This document shows positions 11,209 to 57,660 of a DNA stretch of 64,000 nt, one piece after another. Location of the stretch: positions 67,779 through 131,778 of the forward strand of contig JAWKZK010000011.1 of assembly GCA_041396005.1 (NCBI GenBank), in the 5' to 3' direction. Source of the DNA: Halioglobus sp. (GTDB lineage: Bacteria; Pseudomonadota; Gammaproteobacteria; Pseudomonadales; Halieaceae). Below the pieces are notes generated by a model. It saw only the letters and a program-made list of their open reading frames with translations. It was not told the DNA's origin and searched no databases. The translations under genes were made by a program, and so were the position numbers. The stretch's first letter is position 1. Every line of letters starts with the position of its first letter.

Positions 11209-12273
11209 CTAGCGAATGTGCCGAATCAGGAAGGGCGCCAGCGTTTCGCCGGACGGATCGGTGAGCGGAAACGCCGTGTCCTCGGAGTACGCCACGCTCG
11301 CCACGCCGACCTCGTCCGCGCGGTTTTTCACCGCGATGGCGTGCAGCCCGTGGTGCAGGAACAGGTTGAGCGGGTCGTCCAGCCCGGTGGCGTAATTCTG
11401 CACGTAGATGGGCGCGTCGCCGGCATCCATCAGGCCCAGCATGTCGATATTGGCGCGGTAGGCGGCATTCTCTTCACTGGTGATCGCCTCTAGGCTGTCA
11501 ACGCCGAGAAAGGTGAGCAGGTAGTTGGTGGCGCCCACAGCGGCGGCAAGCGTGGGTACGTCGGTACCGCCCAGCAGGTTGGCGAGCGGCTGTGTCACCG
11601 GCAGCAACACCTCCTCCCAGCGTAACAAATCGTAGGTCGCCTGCGTGGCCAGTAGCCCTACGGCCTTCACGCGTGTGGACTCGCGCAGTACCGGATCAGC
11701 ATTCTGCGGGTCGGCCATGTCATCATGCGTGCCCAGCCACAGGCTGGCGCCGGCGCCAGCCGAGCCGCCGTACAGGGCAACGTTTTGCGGATCTATGTTC
11801 AGGCTGGCGAAATGGTAACGCATGAACTGCAGGGCCCTGGCGGTATCTTCCAGCGAAGTGAGCACACCGCCCTGGGATACGGCCGAGGCAATATCCTCAT
11901 CGCTGTCGGGCACCTTGAGCAGCGTGTAGTTGATAGAAGCGTGCGCCACGCAGGACTGCAGGAATTCCCGCACCAGGGAATCGCGCACGCTGCTCTTGTC
12001 GCCGCCGGTAAAACCGCCGCCATGAATGTAGATCACCAGCGGCAGCGGGCCGTCGCAATCGGGCAGGTACACATCGAAAACGTTGCGCTCTTTCGACCCG
12101 TAGACCACGTCGGCCGCGAAGTCGGCGCTGATACCGGCGAGGTCGATGGGCGCATCGGAAAACGTGAGTTGCAGGGCGGGCCGCACCTCGGCGCCGCCGT
12201 TGTCGCCGCCGTCGCTGCAGGCGACCAGAAGCGCGAGAGTGGATGTCAGTAGCAGGCGTCTTATTGTTGGCAT
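11209..12273 (-). CDS. Alpha/beta hydrolase (BD-FAE/esterase-like) lipoprotein
   Basis: Lipobox LVAC followed by SDGGD; YIHGGGF and GGSAG motifs. Confidence 0.85.
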   Translation of the reverse strand: MPTIRRLLLTSTLALLVACSDGGDNGGAEVRPALQLTFSDAPIDLAGISADFAADVVYGSKERNVFDVYLPDCDGPLPLVIYIHGGGFTGGDKSSVRDSLVREFLQSCVAHASINYTLLKVPDSDEDIASAVSQGGVLTSLEDTARALQFMRYHFASLNIDPQNVALYGGSAGAGASLWLGTHDDMADPQNADPVLRESTRVKAVGLLATQATYDLLRWEEVLLPVTQPLANLLGGTDVPTLAAAVGATNYLLTFLGVDSLEAITSEENAAYRANIDMLGLMDAGDAPIYVQNYATGLDDPLNLFLHHGLHAIAVKNRADEVGVASVAYSEDTAFPLTDPSGETLAPFLIRHIR

Positions 12274-12391
12274 GATCTGGGATCCCGGGTGTCTGTAGGT
12301 TCAACATAGCGCAAACGACTTTTGCTGGCCATACTGTGCGCGTCCGTCGCGGTTTGCGCGGGCAGACCATCATCCACAAGAGGAGAAGCGC

Positions 12392-12799
12392 ATGCAGGTA
12401 AGCGGAGGCTGTTACTGCGGGAAAGTTCGCTATGAGGCCGAGGGAGAACCGGTGATGCGGGGCCTGTGCCACTGCCGGGAGTGCCAATACATCACCGGGG
12501 GCGGCGCCAACGTTGCGCTGGCCATGCCATTGGCGGGTTTCCGCTACGTGGCGGATGCGCCGAAAGGGTTTGCGCGCCAGGATCTGGACAACGCGGTGCT
12601 GCGCGAGTTTTGCCCCGAGTGTGGAACGCATCTCACCAGCCGGCCCCAGATGCTGCCAGACCTGGTGATCATCAAAGTGGGCACGCTGGACGACCCGAGC
12701 GTGTATGGCCAGCCCGATATGGCGCTGTATTGCAGCGAGCGGCAGCCTTTTCACTATCTGCCCGAGGGCTTGCCGCAGTTCGACCGCTTTCCCGAGTAG
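12392..12799 (+). CDS. GFA family protein (CENP-V/GFA zinc domain)
   Basis: GGCYCG, CHCRECQ, REFCPECGT motifs. Confidence 0.92.
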   Translation: MQVSGGCYCGKVRYEAEGEPVMRGLCHCRECQYITGGGANVALAMPLAGFRYVADAPKGFARQDLDNAVLREFCPECGTHLTSRPQMLPDLVIIKVGTLDDPSVYGQPDMALYCSERQPFHYLPEGLPQFDRFPE

Positions 12800-12847
12800 C
12801 GTGGCGTGTGGCTCCTGGTGCAAGCCGGGCGCTGAGACAGCCGCCCG

Positions 12848-14778: not shown

Positions 14779-14813
14779 CGGCGTCCCCGACGCATTCACA
14801 GGGAACGCCCGCC

Positions 14814-19962: not shown

Positions 19963-21870
19963 CTATTGCAGGTTGCGTTGGATAAACGCCAGCAACGGCG
20001 CAATCACCTGGTTGCTCTCGTCGTCGTCTGCGGTGACGATGTCCACGTGAGCATAGCCCTCCGAGATGTAGACCTCGAAACCGCCCGCCGCGTCGCCGAA
20101 AGCGGGGAAGGCCGGGCTGGGGTTCGCGCGGTCTACCACCCGCGGCGTGGTGCCATCGCAGCTCGGCGCGGCGCAGGGCGCGATGGCGTCGGCAAAACCC
20201 AGCCACACCGCCGGCACCGGTGTCAGCCCGTTGCTGCCGCCGAAGGCGATCACCGGGATGTCGATGTTGGTGGCCTGGGTGCGGTAGTCGATATCGCCGC
20301 GGCCCCGGCCCACGGGCGGGGGTGCGGATAGCGGCGTGGTATCCAGCCCCAGGCCGTTGGTCACCGCAAGGCCGGAAGAGGCGTAATACCACTCGGAAAA
20401 GTTGGTGCCGCCGCGGAAAAAGATCGGCAGCATGCGCCCTTCGAGATCGGAGGGCTCCGCCTCCACCCCCCAGACACCCGCGCCGGCCAGGCTGGTGGGC
20501 GCCGGGCCATTGTCGGTGAACGCCTCGGCCGGTATGCCGTCGCTTTTACTCAGCCAGGTGGCGACGCCGTTTTCCACCGGGCCGTCGAAGCCCACCGAGG
20601 TTGCCACGAAGCTTGCCAGCGAGGCGGCCACGCCGTCGTCATCCAGGAATTTTCCCAGCAGGGCGCTGGAGGAGGCGTCGCCGCCGCCCACCAGTGGCGC
20701 CAGAATGGTGAGCTGGGGCACCCTGGCGATGGCGTTGTTGCCGGCGATGCCGTTCTGGTCCTGCTGCAGAATGGATTGCACACCGTCGCCCACGGCCAGC
20801 GCGTCGATGGCATTCACTTCGGAGATGGCGAGCAACTGGGGTGAGAGCAGCCCCGCAACCTCGGCGTAGGCGCCGCGGGGTTGCACGCAGCGGGTGTTGG
20901 CGAAAGCGGCGCAATCCGTCGCGGCGGTGTCGCTGGTGCAGGCGGTGTTGCCATCGATGCATCGCGGAGCCTGGTCGCGCACCGCGCCGTACAGTCCACC
21001 GTCGAAGCTGGCCTCGATCAGGTCCAGGGTCTCCTCGCTCACCGGCTCGTCCGAGAGACTGCCGCCGCCTCCCTCGAGCAGCACCAGGCCGCGCAGCCTG
21101 GCGTAGCCCGGCTGGGGCGCGCCCGAACCGAAGCTGAAGTCGGTAGCCGCGTAGCGGGCGGTGTAGCCGGTGCCCGCGGAGTGTCCGCCGAGGAAGACGT
21201 TTGCGCCGCGCGCCGCAGCACGCGCGGCCTCAACCACCGCGTCGATATCCTGCGAGTGCACCAGCGTGGTCCACTGCGCCATGAAGGCGGTGTCGCTGCT
21301 GCTGTTGTAAAACTCGGCCCGGCGGTTCGGCCCCTCGACCAGCGCCTGGCTCAGGTTGAGCCCGAGGGCGTCACCGAACAGGAAGTCCAGCCCTACCAGC
21401 GGGTCGTTCAGTTCCTCCGCGATATCGAGGCCCACCGTGTCTTCCAGAAAACTCGAGCGTCGGTCTACCGCCCACACTTCCAGCACCAGCGAGGTGTCGG
21501 CCGCCGCGCGACGCAGCAGGTTTTCCGCCAGCAGGTAGAAGGTGGACGCCCCCCCCTCGAAGCCGGGTATCAGCACCAGAATCGCATCCGGCTGCCGGTT
21601 TTCATTGTTCGACAGGAAGTAGCGCGTGTAGCGCGCCTTGTTGAAGTTGATGTCCTGGCCGGCGAACTGACGCAGCAGCTTCGGGTTGCTCACAAGCACG
21701 CCCGGTGAGCCGGGCGTAAAGGCGGGTTGCGCCACGCTGGGCAGATCGACAGTGGCCTGCAGGAAGGCGTTATCACCCGGCATCACCGGGGTGGGTGAAT
21801 CGCTGCCGTCCGAGCAGCCGGTCAGCGACCCGATGAGGGCAAGGGCAGTCACGAGACAAGGCATGCGCAT
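19963..21870 (-). CDS. Large alpha/beta hydrolase lipoprotein
   Basis: Lipobox LTGC followed by SDGSD; IPGFEGGA, GGHSAG nucleophile elbow, GYAHVD. Start moved to MRMPCL. Confidence 0.8.
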   Translation of the reverse strand: MRMPCLVTALALIGSLTGCSDGSDSPTPVMPGDNAFLQATVDLPSVAQPAFTPGSPGVLVSNPKLLRQFAGQDINFNKARYTRYFLSNNENRQPDAILVLIPGFEGGASTFYLLAENLLRRAAADTSLVLEVWAVDRRSSFLEDTVGLDIAEELNDPLVGLDFLFGDALGLNLSQALVEGPNRRAEFYNSSSDTAFMAQWTTLVHSQDIDAVVEAARAAARGANVFLGGHSAGTGYTARYAATDFSFGSGAPQPGYARLRGLVLLEGGGGSLSDEPVSEETLDLIEASFDGGLYGAVRDQAPRCIDGNTACTSDTAATDCAAFANTRCVQPRGAYAEVAGLLSPQLLAISEVNAIDALAVGDGVQSILQQDQNGIAGNNAIARVPQLTILAPLVGGGDASSSALLGKFLDDDGVAASLASFVATSVGFDGPVENGVATWLSKSDGIPAEAFTDNGPAPTSLAGAGVWGVEAEPSDLEGRMLPIFFRGGTNFSEWYYASSGLAVTNGLGLDTTPLSAPPPVGRGRGDIDYRTQATNIDIPVIAFGGSNGLTPVPAVWLGFADAIAPCAAPSCDGTTPRVVDRANPSPAFPAFGDAAGGFEVYISEGYAHVDIVTADDDESNQVIAPLLAFIQRNLQ

Positions 21871-22044: not shown

Positions 22045-23202
22045 ATGGTTCGCAAACTCTCCGCGGCACTGCTGGCCCTCGCGTCTATCGCGTTGTCCGG
22101 CTGTAGCGATGGCAGTGACGGCAGTCAGGCCGGCGCGGCACTGCCGGTACCTTCCGATTTCAGCGACGCCGATGCCAGCCTTGAGGCCTTTGTGGCTGCG
22201 CATCCCGGGTTCAGCGGTGCCGCCTATATCGTGGTAGACCGTTCGCGCGGCGTGATCCACCAGCGCGCGGTGGGTGACTACACCGTAGACACGGTGGTGA
22301 TGCTCGCATCCACCAGCAAAGTGCCGTCCTCGATGCTCCTGATGGCGCTGGCGGAAGACGATGACAACGTCGATTTCGAGATAGACCGCGCGATTGACGA
22401 TTACCTGCCCTGGATGGGTGTGTGGCCGGGGCGCACCGCTGAACAGCTCGTTTCCAACACCTCGGGCATCCCCGGCCTCGGCCAACTCGCCGGCTATGGC
22501 GCTCACCTGTGCCAGTTTTCTCCCGCCGGCCAGTTGCGTGACTGCGGGCAGGTGATTTATGAAACGCCGCTGGATGCGCTCAGCAGTTTTCCGCCCGGCA
22601 CCGGCTTCGATTACGGCGGCAGCCCCTGGCAGCTCGCGGGTGCGGTCGCTGAAGTGGTGGGCGGTGCAAGCTGGAACCAGCTGTTCGACGCCTACATTGG
22701 CCAACCCTGCGAACTGGAGGTGTTTCGCTACGGCAACAACCTCGCCGTGTTTGCGGACTGGAGCGGCGACCCGGACAGCCTGCAGGGTCTGGATAACCCG
22801 AATATCGAGGGCGGGGCGATCAGCAATCTGGCGGATTACGCCAGGTTGATTTCGCTGCATCTCAACGAGGGCCGCTGCGGGGATACGCAGGTGCTCAGCC
22901 CCGAGGCCGTTGCCTTTATGCGCCGTGATCGTGCCTGGGCCACCGGCACGGTGGCGCGAGACGCATGGGGCTATGGCATGGGCTGGTGGATCGAACCGCC
23001 CGAGGATGTCGATGCCGCGCCCACCCTGTTTCGCGACCCGGGTGCTTTCGGTGCGCTGTCGTGGATCGATATCGAGCGCGGTTTCGGCGGCTTCATGGCG
23101 ATCCAGTCAAAAGCACTCGAGGACGGTTCCGACGCCAGCGGCTATGGCTCCAGGGAGTTGATTCCCCTGTTGCAGGCCGCCTACGACGCGGTGCGACCCT
23201 AG
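22045..23202 (+). CDS. Serine hydrolase (beta-lactamase family) lipoprotein
   Basis: Lipobox LSGC followed by SDGSD; ASTSK (SxxK); FDYGG; YGMGWW; PGAFG. Confidence 0.9.
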   Translation: MVRKLSAALLALASIALSGCSDGSDGSQAGAALPVPSDFSDADASLEAFVAAHPGFSGAAYIVVDRSRGVIHQRAVGDYTVDTVVMLASTSKVPSSMLLMALAEDDDNVDFEIDRAIDDYLPWMGVWPGRTAEQLVSNTSGIPGLGQLAGYGAHLCQFSPAGQLRDCGQVIYETPLDALSSFPPGTGFDYGGSPWQLAGAVAEVVGGASWNQLFDAYIGQPCELEVFRYGNNLAVFADWSGDPDSLQGLDNPNIEGGAISNLADYARLISLHLNEGRCGDTQVLSPEAVAFMRRDRAWATGTVARDAWGYGMGWWIEPPEDVDAAPTLFRDPGAFGALSWIDIERGFGGFMAIQSKALEDGSDASGYGSRELIPLLQAAYDAVRP

Positions 23203-23262
23203 CGGCGACCCGCGCCCGGCACCGGGCCGCGCCTCGTGGGCTACCAGGCGGGAGGAGAGGAG

Positions 23263-24693
23263 ATGAAACGCAGAGCTTTTTTACGCTATAGCGGCCTCGG
23301 CGCGGCTGGCGCGGCCACGGCAGCCACGCTGGGTGGCTGTGCCGATGACGCGCCGTCGGTCAAATTCTGGCAACAGGGCAATTTCCGGCCAGTGAAGGAC
23401 GAGGTCAGCGTCAGTGAGCTGACCATCGAAGGGTCCATTCCGCCAGAGCTCTCGGGCCTGTATGTGCGCAACGGCACCAACGCCGCAAGCGGCACGGCGG
23501 AACACTTCTTCGGCGGCGATGGGATGTTGCACGGACTGCGCCTGGAAGGCGGGCGCGCGCTCTGGTATCGCAACCGTTACGTCGATACGCCGGTGTACCG
23601 CCAGGAAACCGGCGGCTTTGGCGCGCCGAAGGCCGAGGATACCACCAGCGCGGTGTCGCTCATCTATCATGGTGGGCGCCTGATGTCGCTCGGCGAGTTC
23701 GGTTACCCGTACCTCATTGATCCGGGCGACCTGTCAACGCTGGGCGTGTTCAACTACGATGGCAAACTGACCGGCAATATGACGGCGCACCCGCGGATAG
23801 ACCCGCACACTGGCGAGATGCTGTTTTTCGGCTACAACGTGATGCAGCCCTACCTGACCTACATGCGCGCGGACGCCGCCGGCAACATGCTGCAGGTTGA
23901 ACCCCTGGAATTGAGCGGTCCGAGCATGATGCACGATTTTGCCGTGACGGAAAATCATGTGGTGTTCATGGAGATGCCGGTGCGTTTCTCCTGGTGGCAG
24001 GCGCTCACCGGCAGCGCGCTGCCTTTCAAGTGGGATGACGGCGCGCCCTGTCGCGTGGGTGTAATGCCGCGCACGGGCAGCAACGCCGATCTGCGCTGGT
24101 TCGATATTCCCCCGTGCTTCGTATTTCACATCATGAATTCGTTTGAGCGCGGGAACGAAGTGATGGTGGACGCTGCCCGCTACGATCACCTCTGGGTGAA
24201 AAACTCGCACGACTTTTTCCATCCGGCCCGGCTGTCGCGTTTCACGATGAACCTGAAAACCGGCAAGGCCTCGGTTGAGCGGATTTTCGATGCCGCCATG
24301 GAGTTCCCGCAGGTGAATCGCAGCCAGTGGACGCTGCCTTACCGCTACGGTTACAGCCTTGCGGTGGACGAAGTGAATGACGCGCCCGAGCGCATCAATC
24401 TCGCGCGCGGCGGTATTCGCAAGTACGACCTGAGTACGGGAGACGCGCAGGAATGGGCGTCAGGCGTGAACCTGGTGCCCGGCGAGGCGCTTTTCATTCC
24501 GGCGGCGGATGGCGGCCTGGAAGACGATGGCTATCTGGCCAGCTTCGTGTACGACAGGCACGCGGATGTGAGTAGTTTCTGTCTGTTCGACGCCACTCGC
24601 GTGGCCGCGGGACCGATCGCGACGGTGCGTCTGCCGGTGCGTGTGCCGGTGGGATTCCACGGCCTTTGGGTTCCGGATTTCGCGCTCGCTTGA
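23263..24693 (+). CDS. Carotenoid/stilbene cleavage oxygenase (RPE65 family) with Tat lipoprotein signal
   Basis: MKRRAFL...LGGC; FGGDGMLH; four Fe-ligand His motifs TAHP, MHDF, FHIMN, GFHG. Confidence 0.92.
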   Translation: MKRRAFLRYSGLGAAGAATAATLGGCADDAPSVKFWQQGNFRPVKDEVSVSELTIEGSIPPELSGLYVRNGTNAASGTAEHFFGGDGMLHGLRLEGGRALWYRNRYVDTPVYRQETGGFGAPKAEDTTSAVSLIYHGGRLMSLGEFGYPYLIDPGDLSTLGVFNYDGKLTGNMTAHPRIDPHTGEMLFFGYNVMQPYLTYMRADAAGNMLQVEPLELSGPSMMHDFAVTENHVVFMEMPVRFSWWQALTGSALPFKWDDGAPCRVGVMPRTGSNADLRWFDIPPCFVFHIMNSFERGNEVMVDAARYDHLWVKNSHDFFHPARLSRFTMNLKTGKASVERIFDAAMEFPQVNRSQWTLPYRYGYSLAVDEVNDAPERINLARGGIRKYDLSTGDAQEWASGVNLVPGEALFIPAADGGLEDDGYLASFVYDRHADVSSFCLFDATRVAAGPIATVRLPVRVPVGFHGLWVPDFALA

Positions 24694-27640: not shown

Positions 27641-29362
27641 ATGACCCAATCATCGCATTTGAAACGCCGTACCCTGATCAAGGGCATGGCAGCCAGTACC
27701 CTGTTGCCCCTGCTCGGCGCCAATCTCGTGGGCTGTTCAGACGGATCAGACAATCTCGGCAACTCGGTTCTCGCCGATTTTCTGCACGGCGTTGCCTCCG
27801 GTGACCCTCTGACCGACCGGGTGATCCTGTGGACACGCCTGACTCCGCGTGGCGAAGGCCTGGTGCGGGTGGCCTGGGAGGTGAGCACGGACGAGAGCTT
27901 TTCGAATATCGTCGCCAGCGGTAGCGGTACTACCTCGGCGGAGGTGGATTACACGGTAAAGGTAGATGCCGAGGGCCTGCAGCCGGGTTCCCAGTACTAC
28001 TACCGCTTCAGCAGCGACGACACGGTCTCGCCGCTGGGTAGAACCCGAACCCTGCCGGCGGGCAGCGCTGCGGCCGCGAGCTTCGCGGTGGTGTCCTGCA
28101 GCAACTATCCCGCAGGATTCTTCAATGTCTACCGCGAAGTCGCGCAGCAGGAGCTCGACGCGGTGCTGCATCTGGGCGATTACCTCTACGAATATGCCCC
28201 CGGGGGTTACGCCAGCGCCAACGCGGAGGCCTATGGGCGGGTTGTACAACCGCCCAACGAGCTGTTCTCGCTGGCCGACTATCGCACCCGCTATGCGCAG
28301 TACCGCACCGACGAGGACCTGCAGGCGGCCCATGGCCGTCACCCTTTCATCACCGTGTGGGACGATCACGAAATAGCCAACGATGCCTGGCGCGACGGCG
28401 CGGAAAACCACGATCCCGCCACCGAGGGCGATTACGCGGCGCGGAAAATGGCGGCCATCCAGGCCTGGTACGAGTGGCAGCCCGTGCGCCCGCCCACGGA
28501 TGTGAACGAGGTGATCTATCGTCGCTTCCAATACGCCGACCTGCTCGACCTGCTGATGCTCGACACGCGCATCATCGGCCGCGACGAGCAGTTCGTGTAC
28601 CCGGATTTTGTCAGCGGCGGCATGATCGACGTGGCCGCCGCCAGGGCGGCGTTCGGCGACAGCAACCGCAGCCTGCTCGGCGAGGAACAACGGGCCTGGC
28701 TGCGGGAACAACTGGCGGGGAGCGCCGCCCGCTGGCAGGTGCTGGGCCAGCAGGTGCTGGGCGGCCGCTATCACCTGCCCGCGCCGATTCTGGAGGCGCT
28801 GGACCCCGCGCTGTCGGGCGATGATCCGCTCGCTAAGGGCACCGCGGCGGTACTCGCCGCGGTGGCCGCCAAGACCACGCCCGAGGCATCGCGCACGCCC
28901 GAGCAGCAGGCGCTGCTGGATTCAGCGATCCCCTACAACCTGGATGCCTGGGACGGCTACGAGTACGAGCGCGACCAGCTACTTTCCTATGCGATCGATG
29001 TGGGTTCGAAACTCGTGGTGCTGGCGGGCGATACCCACAACGCATGGAGCAGCCAGCTCACCACCCCGGACGGACGCATCGCCGGTGTTGAGTTCGGTTG
29101 CGCCAGTGTAAGTTCGCCGGGTTTTGATTCGGTGCTGGGGCTGGAGGCCTCCGGCCTCTTCACGCCGCTGATCATTACCCTGGTGGACGATCTCAAGCGG
29201 GTAAACCTGGTGGATCGCGGTTACCTGCACCTGCGCTTCACGCCCGATGCCGTGGATGCCAGCCATCGTTTCGTGAGTACCATCGAATCGCGCGAGTACA
29301 CCGTGGATGCGGCGAAAACCATCGCCCAGTCCATCAGCCGCAGCGATATGCTGATGACCTGA
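27641..29362 (+). CDS. phoD: Alkaline phosphatase D family, Tat lipoprotein
   Basis: KRRTLIKG; LVGC followed by SDGSD; HGVASGDP, HLGDYLYE, WDDHEIAND, DAWDGY, GDTHNAW. Confidence 0.95.
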   Translation: MTQSSHLKRRTLIKGMAASTLLPLLGANLVGCSDGSDNLGNSVLADFLHGVASGDPLTDRVILWTRLTPRGEGLVRVAWEVSTDESFSNIVASGSGTTSAEVDYTVKVDAEGLQPGSQYYYRFSSDDTVSPLGRTRTLPAGSAAAASFAVVSCSNYPAGFFNVYREVAQQELDAVLHLGDYLYEYAPGGYASANAEAYGRVVQPPNELFSLADYRTRYAQYRTDEDLQAAHGRHPFITVWDDHEIANDAWRDGAENHDPATEGDYAARKMAAIQAWYEWQPVRPPTDVNEVIYRRFQYADLLDLLMLDTRIIGRDEQFVYPDFVSGGMIDVAAARAAFGDSNRSLLGEEQRAWLREQLAGSAARWQVLGQQVLGGRYHLPAPILEALDPALSGDDPLAKGTAAVLAAVAAKTTPEASRTPEQQALLDSAIPYNLDAWDGYEYERDQLLSYAIDVGSKLVVLAGDTHNAWSSQLTTPDGRIAGVEFGCASVSSPGFDSVLGLEASGLFTPLIITLVDDLKRVNLVDRGYLHLRFTPDAVDASHRFVSTIESREYTVDAAKTIAQSISRSDMLMT

Positions 29363-30980: not shown

Positions 30981-32246
30981 ATGCGACGATTTTTCCTGCT
31001 GGTTCTGTTTTCCCTCACCGCCGCGTGCAGCGGCGCGTCCAAACCGCTGGATGCGCCGCCCATGGCAGACGGCCTCGCGGCCCCGGAGCCGCTGGCTTGG
31101 TGGAGTCGTGCCGCGATCGACGCCTACATCCGTTTTTCGTCCTGGCGCGGGGAGCGCTCGGGCTACATCGTGCTGCTGGCACGCGACGGTGTGCCGGTGT
31201 ACGCCAATGCGGCGGGCTGGAAGAACATTGAAGCGCGCACGCCCATGACCCTGGACACCGAGGTGCGCATCGCTTCAATGACGAAACCGGTCACAGCGGT
31301 GGCGGCCATGCTGCTGGTGGAACAGGGGCTGCTGGGCCTGGACGATCCGGTGGCCGAGTATCTCCCGGCGTTTGCCCGGCTGCGGGTGGCCACCTCGCAA
31401 ACCGCCGGCGCCGACGGCAGTTTCGCTTCGCGGCCTGCCGCCACCCCCATGACGGTCAGGCACCTGTTGATGTTCGCTTCGGGGATCGGGCCCGGCATGG
31501 GCGAGTCCACCGATCTGACGTCGCTCTGGGAGGCCAGGGGTATACACGGTCAGGCCGATGGCGATCTCCGGCAGCGGGTTGATCGCCTGGCCGCGCTGCC
31601 GCTGTTTGAGGAACCGGGAACCCGCTGGCGCTACGGCGCCTCCGCCGATGTGCTGGCCGCCGTCGTGCAGCAGGTGAGCGGGCGCAATATCGGCGACTTC
31701 ATGCAGGAGCGAATCTTCGAGCCGCTCGGCATGGCGCATACCCGCTTCGAGCCGCCCGTCGCGGAGCGCGGGAACATGGCGACTGTGTACCGGCAGGACA
31801 GCAACGGCGATCTCGTGGAGGCCGATATTCACTACGCGCCTGACTGGCAGCCCGGTGGCGGCGGCCTGGTGTCCACCGTATCGGACTACATGCGCTTTGC
31901 GCTGATGCTGTACAACGGCGGCGAGTATCGTGGCGTGCGCATCCTGCAGCAGGCCACGGTCGACGAGATGCGGCGTGTGCATGTGCCCGAGGGCGTGCTG
32001 GCCGAACAGGGGATTGCCGGCGTCGGCTGGGGCCTTGGTATGGCGGTGGTCAGCAACGCCGAGGCGTCACGAACGCCCGATCGCAACGGGGATTTCTGGT
32101 GGTCGGGGTTCTACGGTACGCAGTTTTTCGTCAGCCCCGAAACCGGCCTGGTGGGCGTCATCATGACGCAGAACAAGCCCGGTGAGTTCTCCGGCATCAA
32201 CTACCAGCCCTACATTGTGCAGGGGCTGGCACTGGCCGGTTTGTGA
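30981..32246 (+). CDS. Serine hydrolase (beta-lactamase family) lipoprotein
   Basis: Lipobox TAAC; IASMTKP; WRYG; GGGGLVST; WWSGFYGT. Confidence 0.9.
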   Translation: MRRFFLLVLFSLTAACSGASKPLDAPPMADGLAAPEPLAWWSRAAIDAYIRFSSWRGERSGYIVLLARDGVPVYANAAGWKNIEARTPMTLDTEVRIASMTKPVTAVAAMLLVEQGLLGLDDPVAEYLPAFARLRVATSQTAGADGSFASRPAATPMTVRHLLMFASGIGPGMGESTDLTSLWEARGIHGQADGDLRQRVDRLAALPLFEEPGTRWRYGASADVLAAVVQQVSGRNIGDFMQERIFEPLGMAHTRFEPPVAERGNMATVYRQDSNGDLVEADIHYAPDWQPGGGGLVSTVSDYMRFALMLYNGGEYRGVRILQQATVDEMRRVHVPEGVLAEQGIAGVGWGLGMAVVSNAEASRTPDRNGDFWWSGFYGTQFFVSPETGLVGVIMTQNKPGEFSGINYQPYIVQGLALAGL

Positions 32247-38087: not shown

Positions 38088-40754
38088 TCAGGGCGCGGCG
38101 GCGGTGTGTGCGTGCCAGCCATCGCCCTCGGCGTCCAGCAGCACCGGGTTGGCGAACGCGAAAGGGATCGCGCCGGGCGCCACGGTGGCGTATGCCGGCG
38201 TCGGCTGTCCCAGCACCTCGACGAATACAAATCCGTCTTCGCTGATCGGCAGCGCCTCGGCCACGGTTTGGCCCGGCGCGATGGCCAGCGTCTTCCACAG
38301 CCCGCCATTGAGCCAGATACGCAGTGTGTCGACAGCCACCCAGGGTGCGGCATCTACCGAGACGGTGAGTGTTCCCGCCGTCCCGCTGTGAGTACCCCCG
38401 GGCCCGGTACCGTCCACGTCCACGCGCAGTATGGGGCCGGTGGTGCCGTAGAGGTTGCCGGCGGCCAGCGCGCGCATGACCCGTCCGACCTTTACGCTGT
38501 CGTCCGCGAGTGCGCCTGCGGCAGACGCATCAAAAAACCCCTCAGCGTCTTCGAGCGCCAGCATATTGCGCGGATACGCCACGAGGTGATGGCTCTTGTG
38601 CGAATCGCTGTTGGCGGTGGCTACCTTGTACACGCCCTGCCTCAGCAGTGCGAACCAGTCGCCGCGCACCTGCTGGTAGAGTTCCAGGTCGGTGCCGTTG
38701 AGCAGTTCGATCGCATCGAAATCGATATCGCGATAGGCGCTGCCCGGGTGCTGCTCCAGCAGCGATGCGTTGGGTGCCTCCTGGAGGTCTTTGGCCGGCT
38801 CGAATGCCGCGCCCTGTGACAGGTGGTCGAAGAACGCGCCATCGTCGTCCTGTGCCGTGGAGCGCGGATGATTCAGCTGAAACAGGCTGTTCCGGAAACG
38901 CGCCTTGTAGGCGCTGATCACTTCTCCCAGGCGCTTGCCTTCGAAGTGCAGGTTGCCGCGCATGAACTCGCCAGGCGCAGGCACCACCGGAAACACGTTG
39001 CTGTGCCCGATGGTGTAGGGCGTGCGCGGGCTGCGCGCCATGCCCGTGACCTCGACACCGGGGAAACTGAACAGCACCTGTTGCAGGCCCATGTCAGCAA
39101 TGGTCGGCGCGAGATCGTAGAGCACGTTGTGCTCCGTGGGTACCAGTACCTCGCAGCCCTGTGCCACGAAGTCTCTGACGCGTTGTTGCGCGGTGAGGCT
39201 GGAATCGAAACTGATGCCGCTGTGCACGTGAAAGTCGGCGCTGATAAGGCCCTCGCTTTCCACCGCGCGCCGGGGTGGCGCGATGGCGAGCACGCTGCGC
39301 GTGCCTGCCACCAGTTCCAGTGCCGCCTCGGTGACGTTGAACTCCGGCCCCCGGCTTGCGAGTACGCGATAACTGCCGGCGGGCAGTGCCAACTCCCGCG
39401 GGTCACCCGGCCCGCCCGACAGGCTCAGGCGATGACTTTCGGCGGCCACGAGGTGGCGCTCCCCGGCAACGCTGGCAGAAGTCAGTTCGTCGTTGAAGAC
39501 CGGCTGGCCGGCGTCGCTGGTGAACACCAGGCTCATGGCCTCTCCCCGGGGCAGTTCCACCACGGCGGGCGCGCCGGTGTCTATCACGCCGAGTTCGGTG
39601 AGTGGCGCTGCCAGTGCCACCGATTGTTGCGTGCTGCTCCAGGGCGTGCGTACGTCCAGGGTGATAGCGGTGATGCCCCGGGGCAGGCGCAGCGTGAAAT
39701 CGCCGCTGGCATCCGGGCGCGCAAAGTTGAGTTCCCGGCCCGCGGTATCGCGCGCGGTCACGCTGGCATCCAGGGTATCGAGGCGGCCCTGCACGCTGTG
39801 GCCGGTATACAGGGCGTTCAGCGTGGCGGCGGCGTCGGCGCTCGCGGCTGCCGTGATCGACTGGCGAAGGATCAGGCTTTCGCCCGTTTCCAGGTCAAAC
39901 AGCTGTCCAAGCGCGAGGCTTATCACGCCGGGCGCGCGGCTCCAGAAGCGCGGAAAGGGCCGTGTGAAGGCGGCGAAAAGGCTGAACGTGTCACCGGACA
40001 CCAGTAGCGTGTGCACGGGTTCTTCGTTGCCCTGCGCGTCACGCAGCAGGGCCTCGTGCAGGCGCAGGGTGTAGCTGATGTCTGCGCCGGTGTTGCGGCT
40101 GCCGATCAGCACCTGGGTATCGGCGGGGCTCACCGCGTTGAGCAGCGACAGGTAGTCGCTGGTGTCCACGGCCGGCTGGCTGAAGCCGGTGGTATAGGCA
40201 ACGTCCTGGCTGTCCACCGTGAAGGGCGTGAGCGAGCTGCCAGGGTGTAGCACCAGTGAGCCGAACATGCGCAGCGCGTCGCCGGCCTGCACACGCGTGA
40301 GGCGCGTTTCAACCTGCAGGGTGTCAGGCTGCGCAGCGTCCATGACATAGCGAACGACGGTTTGCACGCCGGCGTGCTCGCCGCGCGTTTCCAGCCAGGC
40401 CGTTGTGCTGCCCACGCCCGCGCTGATGCCGGTGGTGCGCGGAATCTGGTCTTTCTGCAGGTTGAGTTGCGCGTGGGCCACGTTCCACTGGTCGTTGGCG
40501 CGCTCACAGTGCCACAGGTCTACCAGCGCCGCGCCATGCAGCGCCAGGTAGGTGGGATGGCCGGCGTCCGAGACCACGGCGCACAGTTCGCCGTTGCTGA
40601 GGAACCAGTCATTGGCGCCGCCAATTGCGGCCATGCCGCCCGCAGGCAGGCGGTGCAGTGTTTCAGGCGTGAGTTGAGCGGCGAAAAATTCAGGCGCCTG
40701 CGCCTGCGCCTGGGGCGTCAGGAAGAGGGCAATAGTCAGCAACAGTTTCTTCAA
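38088..40754 (-). CDS. Exported CehA/McbA-like (PHP-fold) metallohydrolase
   Basis: Signal peptide; ADFHVHSG, PTEHN, QLNHPR, IELLNG, ANSDSH. Confidence 0.8.
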   Translation of the reverse strand: MKKLLLTIALFLTPQAQAQAPEFFAAQLTPETLHRLPAGGMAAIGGANDWFLSNGELCAVVSDAGHPTYLALHGAALVDLWHCERANDQWNVAHAQLNLQKDQIPRTTGISAGVGSTTAWLETRGEHAGVQTVVRYVMDAAQPDTLQVETRLTRVQAGDALRMFGSLVLHPGSSLTPFTVDSQDVAYTTGFSQPAVDTSDYLSLLNAVSPADTQVLIGSRNTGADISYTLRLHEALLRDAQGNEEPVHTLLVSGDTFSLFAAFTRPFPRFWSRAPGVISLALGQLFDLETGESLILRQSITAAASADAAATLNALYTGHSVQGRLDTLDASVTARDTAGRELNFARPDASGDFTLRLPRGITAITLDVRTPWSSTQQSVALAAPLTELGVIDTGAPAVVELPRGEAMSLVFTSDAGQPVFNDELTSASVAGERHLVAAESHRLSLSGGPGDPRELALPAGSYRVLASRGPEFNVTEAALELVAGTRSVLAIAPPRRAVESEGLISADFHVHSGISFDSSLTAQQRVRDFVAQGCEVLVPTEHNVLYDLAPTIADMGLQQVLFSFPGVEVTGMARSPRTPYTIGHSNVFPVVPAPGEFMRGNLHFEGKRLGEVISAYKARFRNSLFQLNHPRSTAQDDDGAFFDHLSQGAAFEPAKDLQEAPNASLLEQHPGSAYRDIDFDAIELLNGTDLELYQQVRGDWFALLRQGVYKVATANSDSHKSHHLVAYPRNMLALEDAEGFFDASAAGALADDSVKVGRVMRALAAGNLYGTTGPILRVDVDGTGPGGTHSGTAGTLTVSVDAAPWVAVDTLRIWLNGGLWKTLAIAPGQTVAEALPISEDGFVFVEVLGQPTPAYATVAPGAIPFAFANPVLLDAEGDGWHAHTAAAP

Positions 40755-42052: not shown

Positions 42053-43627
42053 CTAGCGCGGCGCGAAAATATCCGAGCTGGCGGCATGGGCCTTGATCAG
42101 CTCGGCGTCTGCGGGCAAGAGGAACCCCTTGCTCACCGCATCGTCGGCGGCCGTGGCAACTGCGGCGACATACGCTGCGTTGTCGGGATACAGCGAGGCC
42201 AGGGTCGCCGCATCGAACAGCTCGGTGGTGCCGGAGAGGAAACAGAAATTGCGGTCTTCCGGGTTGAAAGGATCCTGCGGTTGACCCTCCCCCGAGAGGA
42301 TGGCGATCGGCACATCCACGTAGGGCGTGCGCACGCCGCCCAGTACGTTGCCCAGGTTGTCCAGTTCGAAACGCGGCGGTTCACCGGATACCGCGAGCCG
42401 CTCGGCGGTGGGCGCCGGCGTGCCGTCAACGATCCAGCGGTTGAGCGCCGACATGGCGGCTTTTGCCACCCAGTGCTGCGGGCCGGCGTTCACCGGCACG
42501 GGACATTCGATGATGCCCGGTATCGGGTTGGCGTTCTCTACCACGGCGGCAACGCGCGGGTTGGTGCCCACGTCCACGCGGTTATCGAGAAAGGTATAGA
42601 GGTCCGCATGGGCGGTGCCCGCCACTTCCCACAGGCGAAACAGCTCGCTATCGGGCTGGTTGCTCGGCCAGGAGCCGAGAATGAACAGATCCGTCTCGGT
42701 TTGCAGCATCAGCACCGGCACGCCGAGATCGTCGCGTACGCGCACGATATCGGGGGTGGCAACCACCACGTCCTCGAAAAAGCCGCCCTGCAGCGGCGCG
42801 CTGCCTGACAGTCGACTGTGGACAAAGTAGCCGTCGAACAGCGCGTGCAGCGGGGCGAACGCGTTGACGTAGGTCATCATGCGGTCTGCCGATTGCGATT
42901 CGCCCGCGGCGATCAGGCGCTCGGGCTGCAGCGCGCCCAGCGGCTGCGGGCCACCGGCCATCGGTGCGCGCAGGGCCTGCGCAATCTGTGAATAGATATC
43001 ATAGGAGAATGCGTCGCCCGGGTGCGAGAGGCCGGCAGTGGCATAGCGCGTGGCGTCTGCGCCGGGCACAAGCGCGGCGGCGCTGCCGTCATTCAGGGCT
43101 TGTACCCCCTCGCGCTGCGCCGATACCCCCACCCAGGCATAGCCGCTGCGAATCAGCTCCGTGTGCAACATGCCCCAGTCGGGTCCGGAATCGAACCCCG
43201 CGCTTACGTTCAGCCATTCCACTACCACACTGCCGTTAAAGTCCGCCGGGTCAGTTGGGCGGATCACCACGATCCGGGTTCTATAATCGGCCGCGTGGCT
43301 GGCCTGCACCTGCCAGCGTCCGTCGGGTTTGAGCTCGTTGCGGTTGGTGTACGCGTTTGCCGTGCCGGCGACGAAGAACTCGTCGCGCTGGTAGCCGAGA
43401 CTGGCCAGCGGAAAGAAGGTGCTCACCAGAACAGGCTCTCCCGGAACGGGCCCTTCCAGCGCTGCGGCGGGCACCTGTACGGCCGCCGGGTTGCCGGCCC
43501 CGGGCACGCCGAGCGTCGGGCGCAGCGCATCGCTGCCGTCGCTGCAGCCTGGCAATGCCATGCCCGCAGTGACGGCGAGACCCAGGAGAAAACGGCGGGT
43601 GCCTGGCCAGCGAGAGAATGCGTTCAT
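42053..43627 (-). CDS. Alpha/beta hydrolase domain lipoprotein (Abhydrolase_10-like)
   Basis: LPGC followed by SDGSD; VVVEWLNVSAG, GESQSA, WEVAGTAHAD, GNVLGGVRTP. Confidence 0.85.
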   Translation of the reverse strand: MNAFSRWPGTRRFLLGLAVTAGMALPGCSDGSDALRPTLGVPGAGNPAAVQVPAAALEGPVPGEPVLVSTFFPLASLGYQRDEFFVAGTANAYTNRNELKPDGRWQVQASHAADYRTRIVVIRPTDPADFNGSVVVEWLNVSAGFDSGPDWGMLHTELIRSGYAWVGVSAQREGVQALNDGSAAALVPGADATRYATAGLSHPGDAFSYDIYSQIAQALRAPMAGGPQPLGALQPERLIAAGESQSADRMMTYVNAFAPLHALFDGYFVHSRLSGSAPLQGGFFEDVVVATPDIVRVRDDLGVPVLMLQTETDLFILGSWPSNQPDSELFRLWEVAGTAHADLYTFLDNRVDVGTNPRVAAVVENANPIPGIIECPVPVNAGPQHWVAKAAMSALNRWIVDGTPAPTAERLAVSGEPPRFELDNLGNVLGGVRTPYVDVPIAILSGEGQPQDPFNPEDRNFCFLSGTTELFDAATLASLYPDNAAYVAAVATAADDAVSKGFLLPADAELIKAHAASSDIFAPR

Positions 43628-46699: not shown

Positions 46700-48202
46700 A
46701 TGCGAACATTCAAGGCGTTTTCAGCGCTTGCTCTTGGCGCGGTTTGTATCCTTTCGTTGGCGGTGGGCTGCAGCGATGGCAAACCCTCCCCTCAGGTGCT
46801 GGAACGCTCGCGCACAACGCCCGACTGGTACGACGATGCCAAGCTCGGGATTTTTATTCACTGGGGGCCTGCCTCGGTGCCGGCTTTCGCGGAAGGCGAG
46901 CCGTTGCGCCCCGGCGAGTTGGAGGAAATGCTCCTGCACGATTCCGGGCGCCAGCAGTTGCCCTATGCCGACTGGTACCTGTACAGCCTGCGGCTGCCGG
47001 GCAGCGCCACTGCGCTGCACCATGCGCAGGAATATGGCGATGCGCCCTACGAGGCCTTTGGTCCCGAGTTTGAGCAGCGCGTCAACGCCGCCTGGGATCC
47101 GGCGGCCTGGGCGGAGCTGTTTGCCGCGACGGGCGCGAAGTATGTGGTGCTGGTATCCAAGCACCACGACGGCTACACCCTTTGGCCCAGCGATGTACCC
47201 AACCCGAATCACGCGGACTGGGGCGCCCGCCGCGACCTGGTGGGCGATCTCGCCGCCGCGGTGCGCGAGCGCGGCATGCGCTTTGGTGTGTACTACTCCA
47301 CCGGGCTGGACTGGAGTTTCGAGCTGGTGACGGAGGGCGACCTGGTGCGCGATATGATACGCAGCGCGCCCACCGGTGAAGGCTACGCCAACTATACCCA
47401 TGCGCACCTGCGCGAACTCATAGACCGCTATCTCCCGGATGTGCTCTGGGCGGATATTGCCTACCCTACCAAAGGTCGCCTGGACGATCTGCTGGCGTAC
47501 TACTTCGACGCGGTGCCAGACGGCACGGTGAATGATCGCTGGGGTGCGCTGGACACGTTCTCCGGTGTTGCCGACATACCGGGCAGCGGGACTGTGATGA
47601 AGGCGCTCGCGCGCTGGCTCACCGCCAACGTGGACCCGCTGGCGGATGACCCTGCGCGCATTGGCTTCAAAACCGCCGAGTACGACAGCCTGCCCGGCAT
47701 TGCGCCCTTCAAGTGGGAGGCGACTCGCGGCCTGGGGGGGTCTTTCGCCTTCAACCAGCGTGAAACGGCCGACGACATGCTGAGCGCGGATGAGCTGGTG
47801 CGCTTCGTCGTGGACACGGTGGCGAAAAACGGGAACGTGCTGATCAACGTGGGCCCCGACAGCCACGGACGCATTCCGGCGATTCAGCGGGCGCCGCTGC
47901 GCGGCCTCGGTGCTTGGATCAGGGTAAACGGCGAGGCCCTTTACGGCACGCGCCCGTGGCAGCGCTTCGGTAACCTGCGGGGCCGTGAACTGCGCTACAC
48001 CCGCTCGCCAACCGCGCTGTATGCGATTGTGTCGGGCGCCGTGGGCAGTGCATTCACAATCGAACACCCGGGTGTGGAATGGTCGGAGGTGTCGGTGCTG
48101 GGCGCCGAGTTGAGCGGGGTTGAGCAGGAGGGCGGCATGCTTACCCTGTCGCTGGCCGCGCCGATGACCGGCCCGGCAGCGGTGGTGCGCTTTGTGCTTT
48201 AG
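46700..48202 (+). CDS. Glycoside hydrolase family 29 (alpha-L-fucosidase) lipoprotein
   Basis: AVGC followed by SDG; WYDDAKLGIFIHWG, KHHDGYTLWPS, WAD, VAKNGNVLINVGP. Confidence 0.92.
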   Translation: MRTFKAFSALALGAVCILSLAVGCSDGKPSPQVLERSRTTPDWYDDAKLGIFIHWGPASVPAFAEGEPLRPGELEEMLLHDSGRQQLPYADWYLYSLRLPGSATALHHAQEYGDAPYEAFGPEFEQRVNAAWDPAAWAELFAATGAKYVVLVSKHHDGYTLWPSDVPNPNHADWGARRDLVGDLAAAVRERGMRFGVYYSTGLDWSFELVTEGDLVRDMIRSAPTGEGYANYTHAHLRELIDRYLPDVLWADIAYPTKGRLDDLLAYYFDAVPDGTVNDRWGALDTFSGVADIPGSGTVMKALARWLTANVDPLADDPARIGFKTAEYDSLPGIAPFKWEATRGLGGSFAFNQRETADDMLSADELVRFVVDTVAKNGNVLINVGPDSHGRIPAIQRAPLRGLGAWIRVNGEALYGTRPWQRFGNLRGRELRYTRSPTALYAIVSGAVGSAFTIEHPGVEWSEVSVLGAELSGVEQEGGMLTLSLAAPMTGPAAVVRFVL

Positions 48203-54329: not shown

Positions 54330-54335
54330 GATGCC

Positions 54336-54821: not shown

Positions 54822-54827
54822 CGTGCA

Positions 54828-54881: not shown

Positions 54882-54900
54882 TTCTGGGAAGCTGGTAAAG

Positions 54901-54927
54901 TGTGTATATATTTCATATTTATACACA
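54901..54927 (+). promoter_or_regulatory. Palindromic operator of vapBC
   Basis: TGTGTATA-N11-TATACACA, 11 bp upstream of the vapB ATG. Confidence 0.7.
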
Positions 54928-54938
54928 TAGGTAATGTT

Positions 54939-55531: not shown

Positions 55532-55585
55532 CGCTTCAAGCACCGGCGGTGAAAAATGGAGCCGGCTGAGCTACTCTTGACTGTG
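55526..55585 (-). mobile_element. Array-proximal attC (right half intact, left half degenerate)
   Basis: Top strand CGGTGCT-TGAAGC-GTTATGT; same TGAAGC spacer as the 50828 and 54343 sites. Confidence 0.65.
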
Positions 55586-55604
55586 TTTAAAAGGGGATCT
55601 TGCC

Positions 55605-56546
55605 ATGCGAATGAGCCTGCGCAGTCCAGGCTTGCTGCTTTCCCTGTTTGCGGTCTGCGCGCTGGTCATGCCGGTTCAGGCACAGTGTCAGGGCGGCAGC
55701 TTTGAAGTACATGCTGTGCACATTTCGCCGGCTGTCGTCATTGAGGAGCAGCCCGTCACGGTGACGGTAACGGGCTTCAACCTGCTGGCGGGCGGTTTTG
55801 AGCCATACCAGGGCAGCCTGCTGATCGCCGATCCGGCGCTGTACGACGTGGCGGTGGAAGGCGCCCGAGTGACACTCACTTATCAGGAGCCGATCTGGGA
55901 TCTGTGTATAGATCCCACACCGCCCTTGGGCGCCAATTACCCGCAGCGGCGGCAGTTTCAGCTGCCGGGCCTGGCGGAGGGAGATTACCTGCTGGTAGTG
56001 GACTACGGCATCGCGCGCAACTGCGGTGGCACCGTTTCTCAGAGCGTCGAGCGGAAGTTGAGGGTTTACCGGGAGGAGCCCGCGCAGCGGCTTTTCAATC
56101 ATGAAACCCCCGAGCAGGGTCAAACGGTGAGCGGTGTGGGTCTCATTCGCGGCTGGGTGTGCTACAACGATGATTGGCGGGCGGGTGGCACGGCGCCAGT
56201 GGTGAGCAGCCTCGGCTACCGAGTGGATAACGGGCCGGTAAAGGCTCTGGCCGCCGGCACCAGCCGAACAGATACTGCGTCAGTGTGCGGCGAGTACAAC
56301 ACAGCCACGGGCTACGGCGCGGTGGTGTACTGGGGCAGTTTCGGTGTGGGCGAGCACGAGTTCACGCTGCTGGTGGACGGCGAGCCGGTGGAAACCACGG
56401 TGTTCAACGTGGTCGCGCCGCCGGAGGGTTTTCTGAAGGGTGTGCAGGCTGGCGCCACGGTGGCCGATTTTCCCGTCCCCGGGCGCAGCGTGCGCGTGGA
56501 GTGGTCCGAGGCGGACCAGAACTTTGTGATTACCGAATTTAATTAA
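55605..56546 (+). CDS. Exported hypothetical protein
   Basis: Signal peptide; C-terminal domain ETP..G.TVSGVGLIRGWVC...GTSRTDTASVCG...EWSEADQNFVI; not an integrase. Confidence 0.75.
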   Translation: MRMSLRSPGLLLSLFAVCALVMPVQAQCQGGSFEVHAVHISPAVVIEEQPVTVTVTGFNLLAGGFEPYQGSLLIADPALYDVAVEGARVTLTYQEPIWDLCIDPTPPLGANYPQRRQFQLPGLAEGDYLLVVDYGIARNCGGTVSQSVERKLRVYREEPAQRLFNHETPEQGQTVSGVGLIRGWVCYNDDWRAGGTAPVVSSLGYRVDNGPVKALAAGTSRTDTASVCGEYNTATGYGAVVYWGSFGVGEHEFTLLVDGEPVETTVFNVVAPPEGFLKGVQAGATVADFPVPGRSVRVEWSEADQNFVITEFN

Positions 56547-56550
56547 CGGC

Positions 56551-57660
56551 CTATTCGGAAACCGAGTTCCAGTTACCCTCCACATCGTCTATCTGAGATT
56601 CAACCCATTCACCCACCGTGACGCCTTCCACGGCCACGTCCAGCTCTCCCAGCAGGAAGGTGTGCGAGGCGCCCGGGGCGATGAAGCTGCGCATGCGTTC
56701 CGGGTTGCGGCTTTCCAGTTCCGCCATGGCGCTGCGCAGTATGGATTCAAACGCCGGGCCGCCGATGCCGAGGAAGAAGGTGCCGATGGTGAAATCCTGC
56801 GCGTAGCTGAGCATACCCAGGCGCACGTCCGGGTCTTGCTTGAGCTGCCAGTCGAGGAAGCCTGTGGGGTCGCCCTGCACGGTGCACTCGGCGCAGCTTG
56901 CCGGGAAGAAGCCGCCGATGTTCCAGTAGTCGATCACCTGCTGGTTGAAGGCCGCATCGTCGGGTCGGTTGATGCCTACACCTGAATCGTTGATCACGTC
57001 GATGGGTACGCCGGGGTACAGCTGGCGCACCAGCGGCAGCGCGAAGATGCTGCCGTAGCCGCCGCCGCTCACGCCGGCCAGCACGATGCGTCGCGGCGCC
57101 GGGAAGGTTTGTACCGCCACGTCCAGCGCGGCGGAGAGGTTGTGCAGCCCGCGGTGGAAGCGGTCCGGCGTGCCGTCTTCGTCCGAGTCTACGTCTGCGT
57201 CGCTGGCGAACAGGCCGCCGTCGCAGTAGGGCAGGTACACGGTGCTGATGCCCGCCAGCGGGTTGGCCGCCAGTGTCGGGTTGAGAATGCCGGCGCTGGG
57301 AATACCCGGTGCCGCGGAGGACGTGGCGGAACAGAAGTCGAACCAGCACGCGCCGCCGCCCTGCAGGAAGATCATCAGGTCTTCGGTGCCCTCGTCGCGG
57401 GTGGCCATGGTGTAGGGGCCGCCGTTGAGGCACAGCGGACCGTCGCCCTCACCGAACTGATGGTTGATCACGTTGCCGTCCGGGGTGCTCAGCATGGGTG
57501 AATACAGGCCGAGGTAGCGGGTTACCCCCTGGTCAATCAGTTCCTGGAAGGGCACCGCGTTGCCGCCGCCCGCGCCGTTGTCGTTGCCGTCCGAGCAGCC
57601 TGCGGCTGTCAGCGCCAGTGCTGCGAGTGAGAGAGCGCCTGCGCGGCGCAGGTGTTGCAT
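56551..57660 (-). CDS. Pectin acetylesterase-family hydrolase lipoprotein
   Basis: AAGC followed by SDGND; CLNGGPY, IFLQGGGAC, LPYCDG, GVSGGGYG, NDSG. Confidence 0.85.
   Translation of the reverse strand: MQHLRRAGALSLAALALTAAGCSDGNDNGAGGGNAVPFQELIDQGVTRYLGLYSPMLSTPDGNVINHQFGEGDGPLCLNGGPYTMATRDEGTEDLMIFLQGGGACWFDFCSATSSAAPGIPSAGILNPTLAANPLAGISTVYLPYCDGGLFASDADVDSDEDGTPDRFHRGLHNLSAALDVAVQTFPAPRRIVLAGVSGGGYGSIFALPLVRQLYPGVPIDVINDSGVGINRPDDAAFNQQVIDYWNIGGFFPASCAECTVQGDPTGFLDWQLKQDPDVRLGMLSYAQDFTIGTFFLGIGGPAFESILRSAMAELESRNPERMRSFIAPGASHTFLLGELDVAVEGVTVGEWVESQIDDVEGNWNSVSE

Follow-up and report, generated by a model that had tools for sequence, protein, structure and literature searches.

Within a 64-kb stretch of the Halioglobus sp. 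draft genome, hereafter the window (C11:67779-131778 of 4.05 Mb, 62% GC), seven lipoproteins of differing families begin their mature part with Cys-Ser-Asp-Gly, and the same hexapeptide tag, C-S-D-[G/S]-x-D, recurs on lipoproteins elsewhere in the genome. Orthologue searches place the genome in the Halieaceae, and their best named match is a Halioglobus MAG. As judged from sequence comparison, the tag is kept by selection at the mature N-termini of a particular class of lipoproteins. By analogy with a motif known from Acinetobacter, we favor the explanation, which we hold to be somewhat probable, that it is the Halieaceae dialect of the motif that sorts surface lipoproteins through the T2SS (type II secretion system) and GspN. 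A sequence-only reading of this DNA had proposed an undescribed sorting signal that routes enzymes to the surface through an unknown flippase. The tag itself has stood up, being class-specific, maintained by selection and absent from housekeeping lipoproteins, while its novelty has not, since a motif of this kind is described (PMC12802150); nor is an unknown flippase needed, a part that the T2SS with GspN encoded by the genome would play.

A stereotyped N-terminus on scavenging lipoproteins

Genes were taken from our own codon-usage open reading frame caller (3,635 genes, 91% coverage), and lipoproteins were predicted with a PROSITE-like regular expression for the lipobox, not with SignalP or LipoP. 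This yielded ~200 candidates genome-wide, some of them false positives, and is known to miss at least one lipoprotein, the RPE65-family oxygenase of the window. All seven hexapeptides reported earlier are present at their positions and strands (Table 1), each following a credible lipoprotein signal in which the regular expression recognizes a K/R n-region, a hydrophobic core and an [LVA]-x-[AGS]-C lipobox. Between +2 and +8, 5-7 of the seven residues are Gly, Ser, Asp or Asn in 6/7 of these carriers, and four are in the remaining one, CSDGKPS.

Genome-wide, the tag occurs far above chance. CSDG was observed at 19 lipoprotein starts, as opposed to 1.9 expected from independent positions, and the exact sequences CSDGSD and CSDSSD open 12 and 4 of the ~200 candidates, respectively. 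The position is as specific as the sequence: 19/25 occurrences of CSDG in the whole proteome fall at lipoprotein +1, and 12/15 occurrences of SDGSD immediately follow a lipobox Cys. At the DNA level, the CSDGSD pattern gave 15 matches and its reversed control one. Depending on the scan, the genome holds 25-28 carriers, with a looser search for C-S-D-[G/S/N] returning 28, most of which have Asp at +6; by the regular expression, these carriers too show the K/R n-region, the hydrophobic core and the lipobox. Position +2 is Ser in 28/28, and the Asp+2 Lol-avoidance signal of enterobacteria is thus not what these proteins carry. Seven of the 28 lie inside the window, where 0.44 would be expected (Poisson P=4e-7, with the caveat that genes of an island are not independent). 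The Gly/Ser/Asp/Asn content of positions +2 to +8 is bimodal across the genome, with 34 proteins at ≥6 of 7 and a main mode at 1-2.

That conservation acts on the protein, as had been proposed, follows from the mixture of Ser codon families at +2 (AGY 15, TCN 13 over the 28 carriers) and from a DNA likeness between carriers that is confined to 15-33 nucleotides around the motif. A duplicated DNA cassette or gene conversion was rejected on the same two grounds.

By Pfam assignment, the carriers comprise esterases, alpha/beta hydrolases, beta-lactamase-family proteins, PhoD, PhoX, GDPD with Calx-beta, GH10, GH29, three penicillin amidases, two pectin-acetylesterase-like proteins, an M19-like peptidase, a lactonase-like protein, a PQQ propeller, a beta-helix protein, DUF4397 and several proteins with no Pfam match; almost all are esterases, phosphatases, glycosidases or amidases. 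For the window, the families named in the sequence-only reading hold for the esterase, the beta-lactamase-family protein, PhoD, Abhydrolase_10, GH29 and the pectin-acetylesterase-like protein, whereas its count of three alpha/beta hydrolases is verified only in part because the 635-amino-acid carrier has no Pfam match. It had named both Sec and twin-arginine (Tat) signals, and PhoD does have a twin-arginine signal. The tag is not universal on hydrolase lipoproteins: a second beta-lactamase-family lipoprotein of the window, correctly noted before as starting CSGA, reads CSGASK.

For comparison, we hand-picked 40 lipoproteins as a non-carrier set. Untagged are BamB (CSTISG), BamC (CGFLMG), BamD (CSGNDE), BamE (CGFVGF), an Lpp-like protein (CASTSQ), NlpD (CGGNSR), RlpA (CSTLPP), MltD (CQSLPE), an OprM-type protein (CTVVGP) and Wza (CATPQK), and likewise the efflux adaptors that start CDGEPQ, CAEEAP, CSEPPA or CSPAPG. 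In the housekeeping outer-membrane lipoproteins, positions +2 to +4 are free of acids. Lipidated efflux adaptors with an acid at +2/+3 do exist (CAEEAP, CSEPPA, CDGEPQ, CDHSTT and CSESSE, the last an E-for-D copy of CSDSSD), but none has CSD[GS]xD. Given this absence from housekeeping, periplasm-facing lipoproteins, the tag is neither a general Ser/Asp/Gly tether bias nor equally common on lipoproteins that face the periplasm, two of the objections that the sequence-only reading had raised against itself.

The genome also holds a second stereotyped lipoprotein class, CGGGG[G/S], with 8 members (Table 1). They include an S8 protease, a Big_1 invasin-like protein, DUF1800, DUF5666, a di-haem peroxidase-like protein and the start of MtrC. 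In 29 other Halieaceae genomes, those of tag-rich genera included, MtrC homologues start with CGGGGGG or a close variant.

Conservation and distribution of the tag

To count the tag across genomes, we used a 23-position hidden Markov model (HMM) that spans the end of the signal peptide and the tag (E≤1e-3). It replaced a DNA-pattern census of seemingly tag-negative genera, which was misleading because variants such as CSDSDD slip past the pattern. The model counted 27 matches in this genome. Two congeners have 22 and 11, three other genera 8, 7 and 7, and each of the remaining twelve genomes 0-1. Outside the Halieaceae there was at most one match per genome (251 genomes from 123 genera of the order). 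Multiple copies of the tag are thus found only in some genera of the Halieaceae.

All 33/33 matches retrieved from four other genomes are genuine lipoproteins, and their families are again of the same kind: penicillin amidases, tannase-like DUF6351, Abhydrolase_10, GDPD, 5'-nucleotidase/metallophosphoesterase, PI-PLC and lipases. One genus (genome G036) has its own spelling, with 7/8 tagged lipoproteins reading CSDSSD, followed by Arg in six and by Ser in one; the codon for its Ser+4 is mostly AGC, one transition from GGC. A further variant with adjacent acids, CSDSDD, was seen in another genus and is rare.

Orthologues retain the tag; that of Pseudohalioglobus lutimaris HF004 starts CSDSSD. 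For the beta-lactamase-family hydrolase encoded from position 22045, those in seven Halieaceae all have CSD[GS][SN][DN], while relatives outside the family are untagged (CSPPTE in a distant gammaproteobacterium, CSGGET in an actinobacterium). Among 14 PhoD orthologues with ≥58% identity, Ser+2 and Asp+3 are each present in 13/14, Gly or Ser at +4 in 14/14 and Asp+6 in 12/14. At +7, by contrast, no residue exceeds 4/14, and the length of the linker varies. PhoD relatives at a greater distance, from other genera, are either lipoproteins that lack the tag or soluble Tat proteins.

Comparison with known sorting systems and possible routes

In Acinetobacter baumannii, surface lipoproteins that depend on T2SS and GspN need a two-branched motif right behind the Cys, GGG or ND(N/D), with Gly/Ser or Asn/Asp at >4 of the positions P2'-P8' (Roberts, Gura and Sandkvist, mBio, December 2025; PMC12802150). 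Among the cargo proteins of that system are GDPD, nucleotidase, nucleosidase, phosphatase, esterase, alpha/beta hydrolases and arylsulfatase (PMC12802150). The Halieaceae tag likewise sits right after the lipobox Cys and draws on the same G/S/D/N alphabet; there are two branches here too, acidic CSDGSD and poly-Gly CGGGGG; and the cargo is similar, with GDPD, nucleotidase (in other Halieaceae genomes), phosphatase, esterase and alpha/beta hydrolase. Gly/Asp hybrids are known from Shewanella MtrC (CGGSDGNN), itself a T2SS-dependent surface lipoprotein, from OmcA (CGGSDGKD) and from B. pseudomallei (CGGDDG..) (PMC12802150). The non-pathogen Shewanella oneidensis MR-1 possesses GspN along with lipoproteins that depend on the T2SS. 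In our genome, an MtrC-type cytochrome falls in the Gly branch, and a T2SS with GspN is encoded. MtrC had failed as a positive control for the equation of CSDG with the surface, its homologues using CGGGGGG; this result first argued against a surface role and then fitted the two-branched T2SS motif once Roberts et al. were considered. The Halieaceae system differs from that of Acinetobacter in a larger candidate cargo (~28 plus 8 proteins, Tat-dependent lipoproteins among them) and in a tag that is confined to some genera and comes in dialects, CSDGSD versus CSDSSDR. A further parallel is offered by Klebsiella pullulanase PulA, a T2SS-displayed lipoprotein that has a Lol-avoidance Asp+2 and depends on PulN (= GspN) (PMC12802150). 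The carriers may resemble it as lipidated hydrolases that must escape Lol before T2SS display; PulA, however, has its acid at +2 followed by a Ser-rich stretch, while the Halieaceae tag has Ser+2 and the acid at +3.

The T2SS genes form a gspE-F-G-(H)-I-J-K-L-M-N block on contig C6, where the gspH slot is represented by a match to the N-methylation motif only; the scan left out gspC and gspD. GspN (PF01203) reaches 111 bits, the cut-off being 29.6, and is present in 33/34 Halieaceae, including genera with 0-1 tagged proteins.

Along the route that we infer, the precursor would be exported by Sec, or by Tat in the case of PhoD (a PhoX-like carrier outside the window seems to have a twin-arginine signal too), would be lipidated at the lipobox Cys and would fold in the periplasm. 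The small and acidic residues at +2 to +6 would then keep the lipoprotein from LolCDE, or pass it to the AsmA-like GspN, and the T2SS secretin would move the folded enzyme outward. The lipid and a Pro-rich linker would keep the enzyme tethered to the outer membrane on its outer face, or else to vesicles. Two branches would be in use, an acidic one (CSDGSD) for ~28 scavenging hydrolases and a poly-Gly one (CGGGGG) for 8 proteins including the MtrC homologue. A T2SS route would suit PhoD in particular, because a Tat-exported protein is folded cargo. Going further, the near-invariance of the hexapeptide and the genus-wide shifts of dialect across unrelated proteins led us to propose that a co-evolving receptor, either GspN or another partner, recognizes the exact sequence of the tag. 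The tag would in that case be a genuine peptide address and not a rule of charge or flexibility; we offer this stronger form tentatively and think it rather unlikely.

Several points weigh against the assignment to T2SS and GspN. The literature search found no proteomic localization data for Halieaceae lipoproteins. The Acinetobacter motif is insufficient alone and requires a second signal in the folded domain (PMC12802150), and its consensus ND(N/D) is a loose N/D run, unlike the near-fixed hexapeptide described here with its Ser+2 and its acids at +3 and +6. One genus has a PhoD orthologue with no acids, CSSGSG. In phylogenetic profiling across the Halieaceae, the presence of GspL and GspN does not track the abundance of the tag, and GspN does not account for the expansion of the acidic branch in some genera only. 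Here the profiling is uninformative because both proteins are near-universal in the family, and the mismatch between GspN and tag abundance is uninformative rather than contradictory because tag-poor genera still have a CGGGGG MtrC. Finally, the tag may mean only avoidance of Lol, because inner-membrane efflux adaptors share an acid at +2/+3.

This last point grows into the main rival explanation, a serious one, which we consider possible but doubtful: the enzymes would be anchored by their lipid in the inner membrane, facing the periplasm and near uptake transporters, and would never cross the outer membrane. Pseudomonas, of the same GTDB order, sorts its lipoproteins on +3/+4 (Narita and Tokuda 2007; Lewenza 2008; as tabulated in PMC6469965), GGG and GDD are reported to direct avoidance of Lol there (Lewenza 2008, as cited in PMC12802150), and the inner-membrane lipoproteins listed for it include TriB, CGDEP, and IcmP, CGDDK (PMC6469965). 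The acids on the efflux adaptors of our genome, one of which even reads CSESSE, and the lack of acids near the Cys in housekeeping outer-membrane lipoproteins conform to such a rule. Many of the carrier families are, moreover, periplasmic in other bacteria. Most of this evidence fails to separate the two readings, since the T2SS route too begins with avoidance of Lol. The retention signals of P. aeruginosa resemble the tag in placing the information at +3/+4 rather than at +2, but they are short and heterogeneous and occur on efflux adaptors and cell-wall enzymes, not as a fixed hexapeptide on scavenging hydrolases; the actual hexapeptide is on no efflux adaptor, and five conserved positions with genus-level dialects exceed the needs of a charge rule. 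A lipid anchor would also gain a periplasmic enzyme little, and distant PhoD relatives are soluble Tat proteins. The substrates of the GH10 endoxylanase and of the lipases are too large for ready entry into the periplasm.

The model of the sequence-only reading was different again, namely a signal akin to the lipoprotein export signal (LES) of Bacteroidota and read by an outer-membrane translocon unrelated to T2SS. Both are acidic N-terminal tags of nutrient-degrading lipoproteins, and SDDDD of B. fragilis even begins S-D as well. The analogy does not go beyond such resemblance, and we regard the model as very improbable. The minimal LES requires a polar or basic residue and behind it an adjacent pair of acids at a set place, +3/+4 to +5, as in K-(D/E)2, Q-A-(D/E)2 and SDDDD (Lauber et al. 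2016; PMC5080379), while CSDGSD and CSDSSD, in another phylum, have single acids at +3 and +6, and adjacent acids occur only in the rare CSDSDD and in CADDAP. LptZ, so far the sole export factor tied to the LES route, acts together with the Lpt machinery and has been reported as specific to Bacteroidota (PMC13692018). Other candidate readers fared no better. The Slam translocon (DUF560, PF04575) was rejected, as it was not found in the two genomes with the most tagged proteins (this genome and G139). The Lol set is canonical, with one LolC/E pair and a single LolA; no LolCE or LolA paralogue is linked to the tag, and extra LolCE-like pairs do not track it. Beside the carriers, an all-against-all comparison of 187 neighbours found no recurrent gene family except a few TonB-dependent receptors. 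A literature search for 'CSDG' with lipoprotein returned nothing relevant.

It is improbable, in our view, that the tag has no address function and is simply a flexible, protease-resistant, low-complexity start of the tether, made uniform by composition bias and shared linker ancestry. Lipoprotein tethers in general are rich in Ser, Gly, Asp, Asn and Pro; the acid-free PhoD orthologue would fit; and Gly and Ser at +4 interconvert by the single transition GGC to AGC, so that the dialects of genera could be drift. Against this, it is the order of the residues that is fixed and not just their composition, as the placement of SDGSD directly after the Cys in 12/15 cases attests, and orthologues keep the tag while the adjacent linker is free in sequence and length. 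The split of the Ser codons between AGY and TCN, the strict absence from housekeeping lipoproteins and the scarcity of matches in the order outside the Halieaceae speak against it as well.

The Halieaceae, or OM60/NOR5 clade, are abundant in coastal waters and react to blooms of phytoplankton. Most of the hydrolytic activity of seawater is bound to cells, and the position of the enzymes on Gram-negative cells is seldom established. If display by T2SS and GspN is correct, the tag would be a sequence-only predictor of Halieaceae surface ectoenzymes (PhoD, PhoX, GDPD, 5'-nucleotidase, esterases, xylanase), a mechanism known so far mainly from pathogens and Shewanella would extend to environmental bacteria, and Tat-dependent lipoproteins would join the T2SS/GspN cargo. 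Dialects that differ between genera provide a natural experiment in which to locate the component that reads the motif. Were the tag a sequence-specific address, a major family of coastal bacterioplankton would, by gaining it, have converted a large part of its phosphatases, esterases and glycosidases into ectoenzymes tethered at the surface.

Genes of the window and further loci

Coordinates are collected in Table 1. Next to the tagged proteins, the oxygenase missed by the regular expression, which the sequence-only reading had not listed either, combines a twin-arginine signal with a lipobox, and its CADDAP is, to go by the residues, an acidic variant of the tag; the gene lies directly downstream of the tagged beta-lactamase-family gene.

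Table 1. Tagged lipoproteins, contrasting proteins and other loci (window positions unless a contig is named)
Feature	Position	Strand	Mature N-terminus	Remarks
Lipoprotein esterase, BD-FAE / alpha-beta hydrolase	11209..12273	-	CSDGGD 12202-12219	Pfam
635-amino-acid lipoprotein	19963..21870	-	CSDGSD 21799-21816	No Pfam match; Pro-rich linker follows
Beta-lactamase-family serine hydrolase lipoprotein	22045..23202	+	CSDGSD 22102-22119	Pfam
RPE65-family carotenoid/stilbene cleavage oxygenase	23236..24693	+	CADDAP, Cys 23338	Twin-arginine signal and lipobox
PhoD phosphodiesterase/phosphatase	27641..29362	+	CSDGSD 27734-27751	Pfam; Tat signal and lipobox
Beta-lactamase-family lipoprotein	30981..32246	+	CSGASK	Untagged, for contrast
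888-amino-acid protein	38088-40754	-		No Pfam match
Abhydrolase_10 lipoprotein	42053..43627	-	CSDGSD 43529-43546	Pfam
GH29 alpha-L-fucosidase lipoprotein	46700..48202	+	CSDGKP 46769-46786	Pfam; truncated tag
Pectin-acetylesterase-like lipoprotein	56551..57759	-	CSDGND 57580-57597	Pfam
978-amino-acid protein	57808-60744	-		Hydrazine-synthase-alpha-like middle domain
Poly-Gly lipoprotein start	C3:220670		CGGGG[G/S]
Poly-Gly lipoprotein start	C4:223756		CGGGG[G/S]
Poly-Gly lipoprotein start	C20:14757		CGGGG[G/S]
Poly-Gly lipoprotein start	C13:149827		CGGGG[G/S]
Poly-Gly lipoprotein start	C9:48256		CGGGG[G/S]
Poly-Gly lipoprotein start	C6:2842		CGGGG[G/S]
Poly-Gly lipoprotein start	C2:93682		CGGGG[G/S]
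Poly-Gly lipoprotein start	C1:217666		CGGGG[G/S]	Start of mtrC
mtrC, decahaem cytochrome	C1:217666-219724		CGGGGG	Several frames
LolC/E gene	C2:239539-240754			Apparently split
LolC/E gene	C2:237640-238857			Intact
428-amino-acid efflux-adaptor lipoprotein	C3:269391-270074		CDGEPQ

Among the loci outside the window, mtrC runs through several frames and in-frame TGA codons after its CGGGGG lipoprotein start and would be a pseudogene or else the product of a misassembly; most other Halieaceae have an intact copy. One LolC/E gene is apparently split by an in-frame TGA in the draft, and the other copy is intact. The N-terminal region of the CDGEPQ efflux adaptor is identical in this and three other genomes, which span three genera; this suggests, from the sequence, a recently transferred mobile efflux or metal-resistance cassette.

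Two large proteins of the window complete the picture. The 888-amino-acid protein has a signal-peptide-like N-terminus, and the 978-amino-acid protein adjoins the tagged esterase at 56551, its sole match being the hydrazine-synthase-alpha-like domain.

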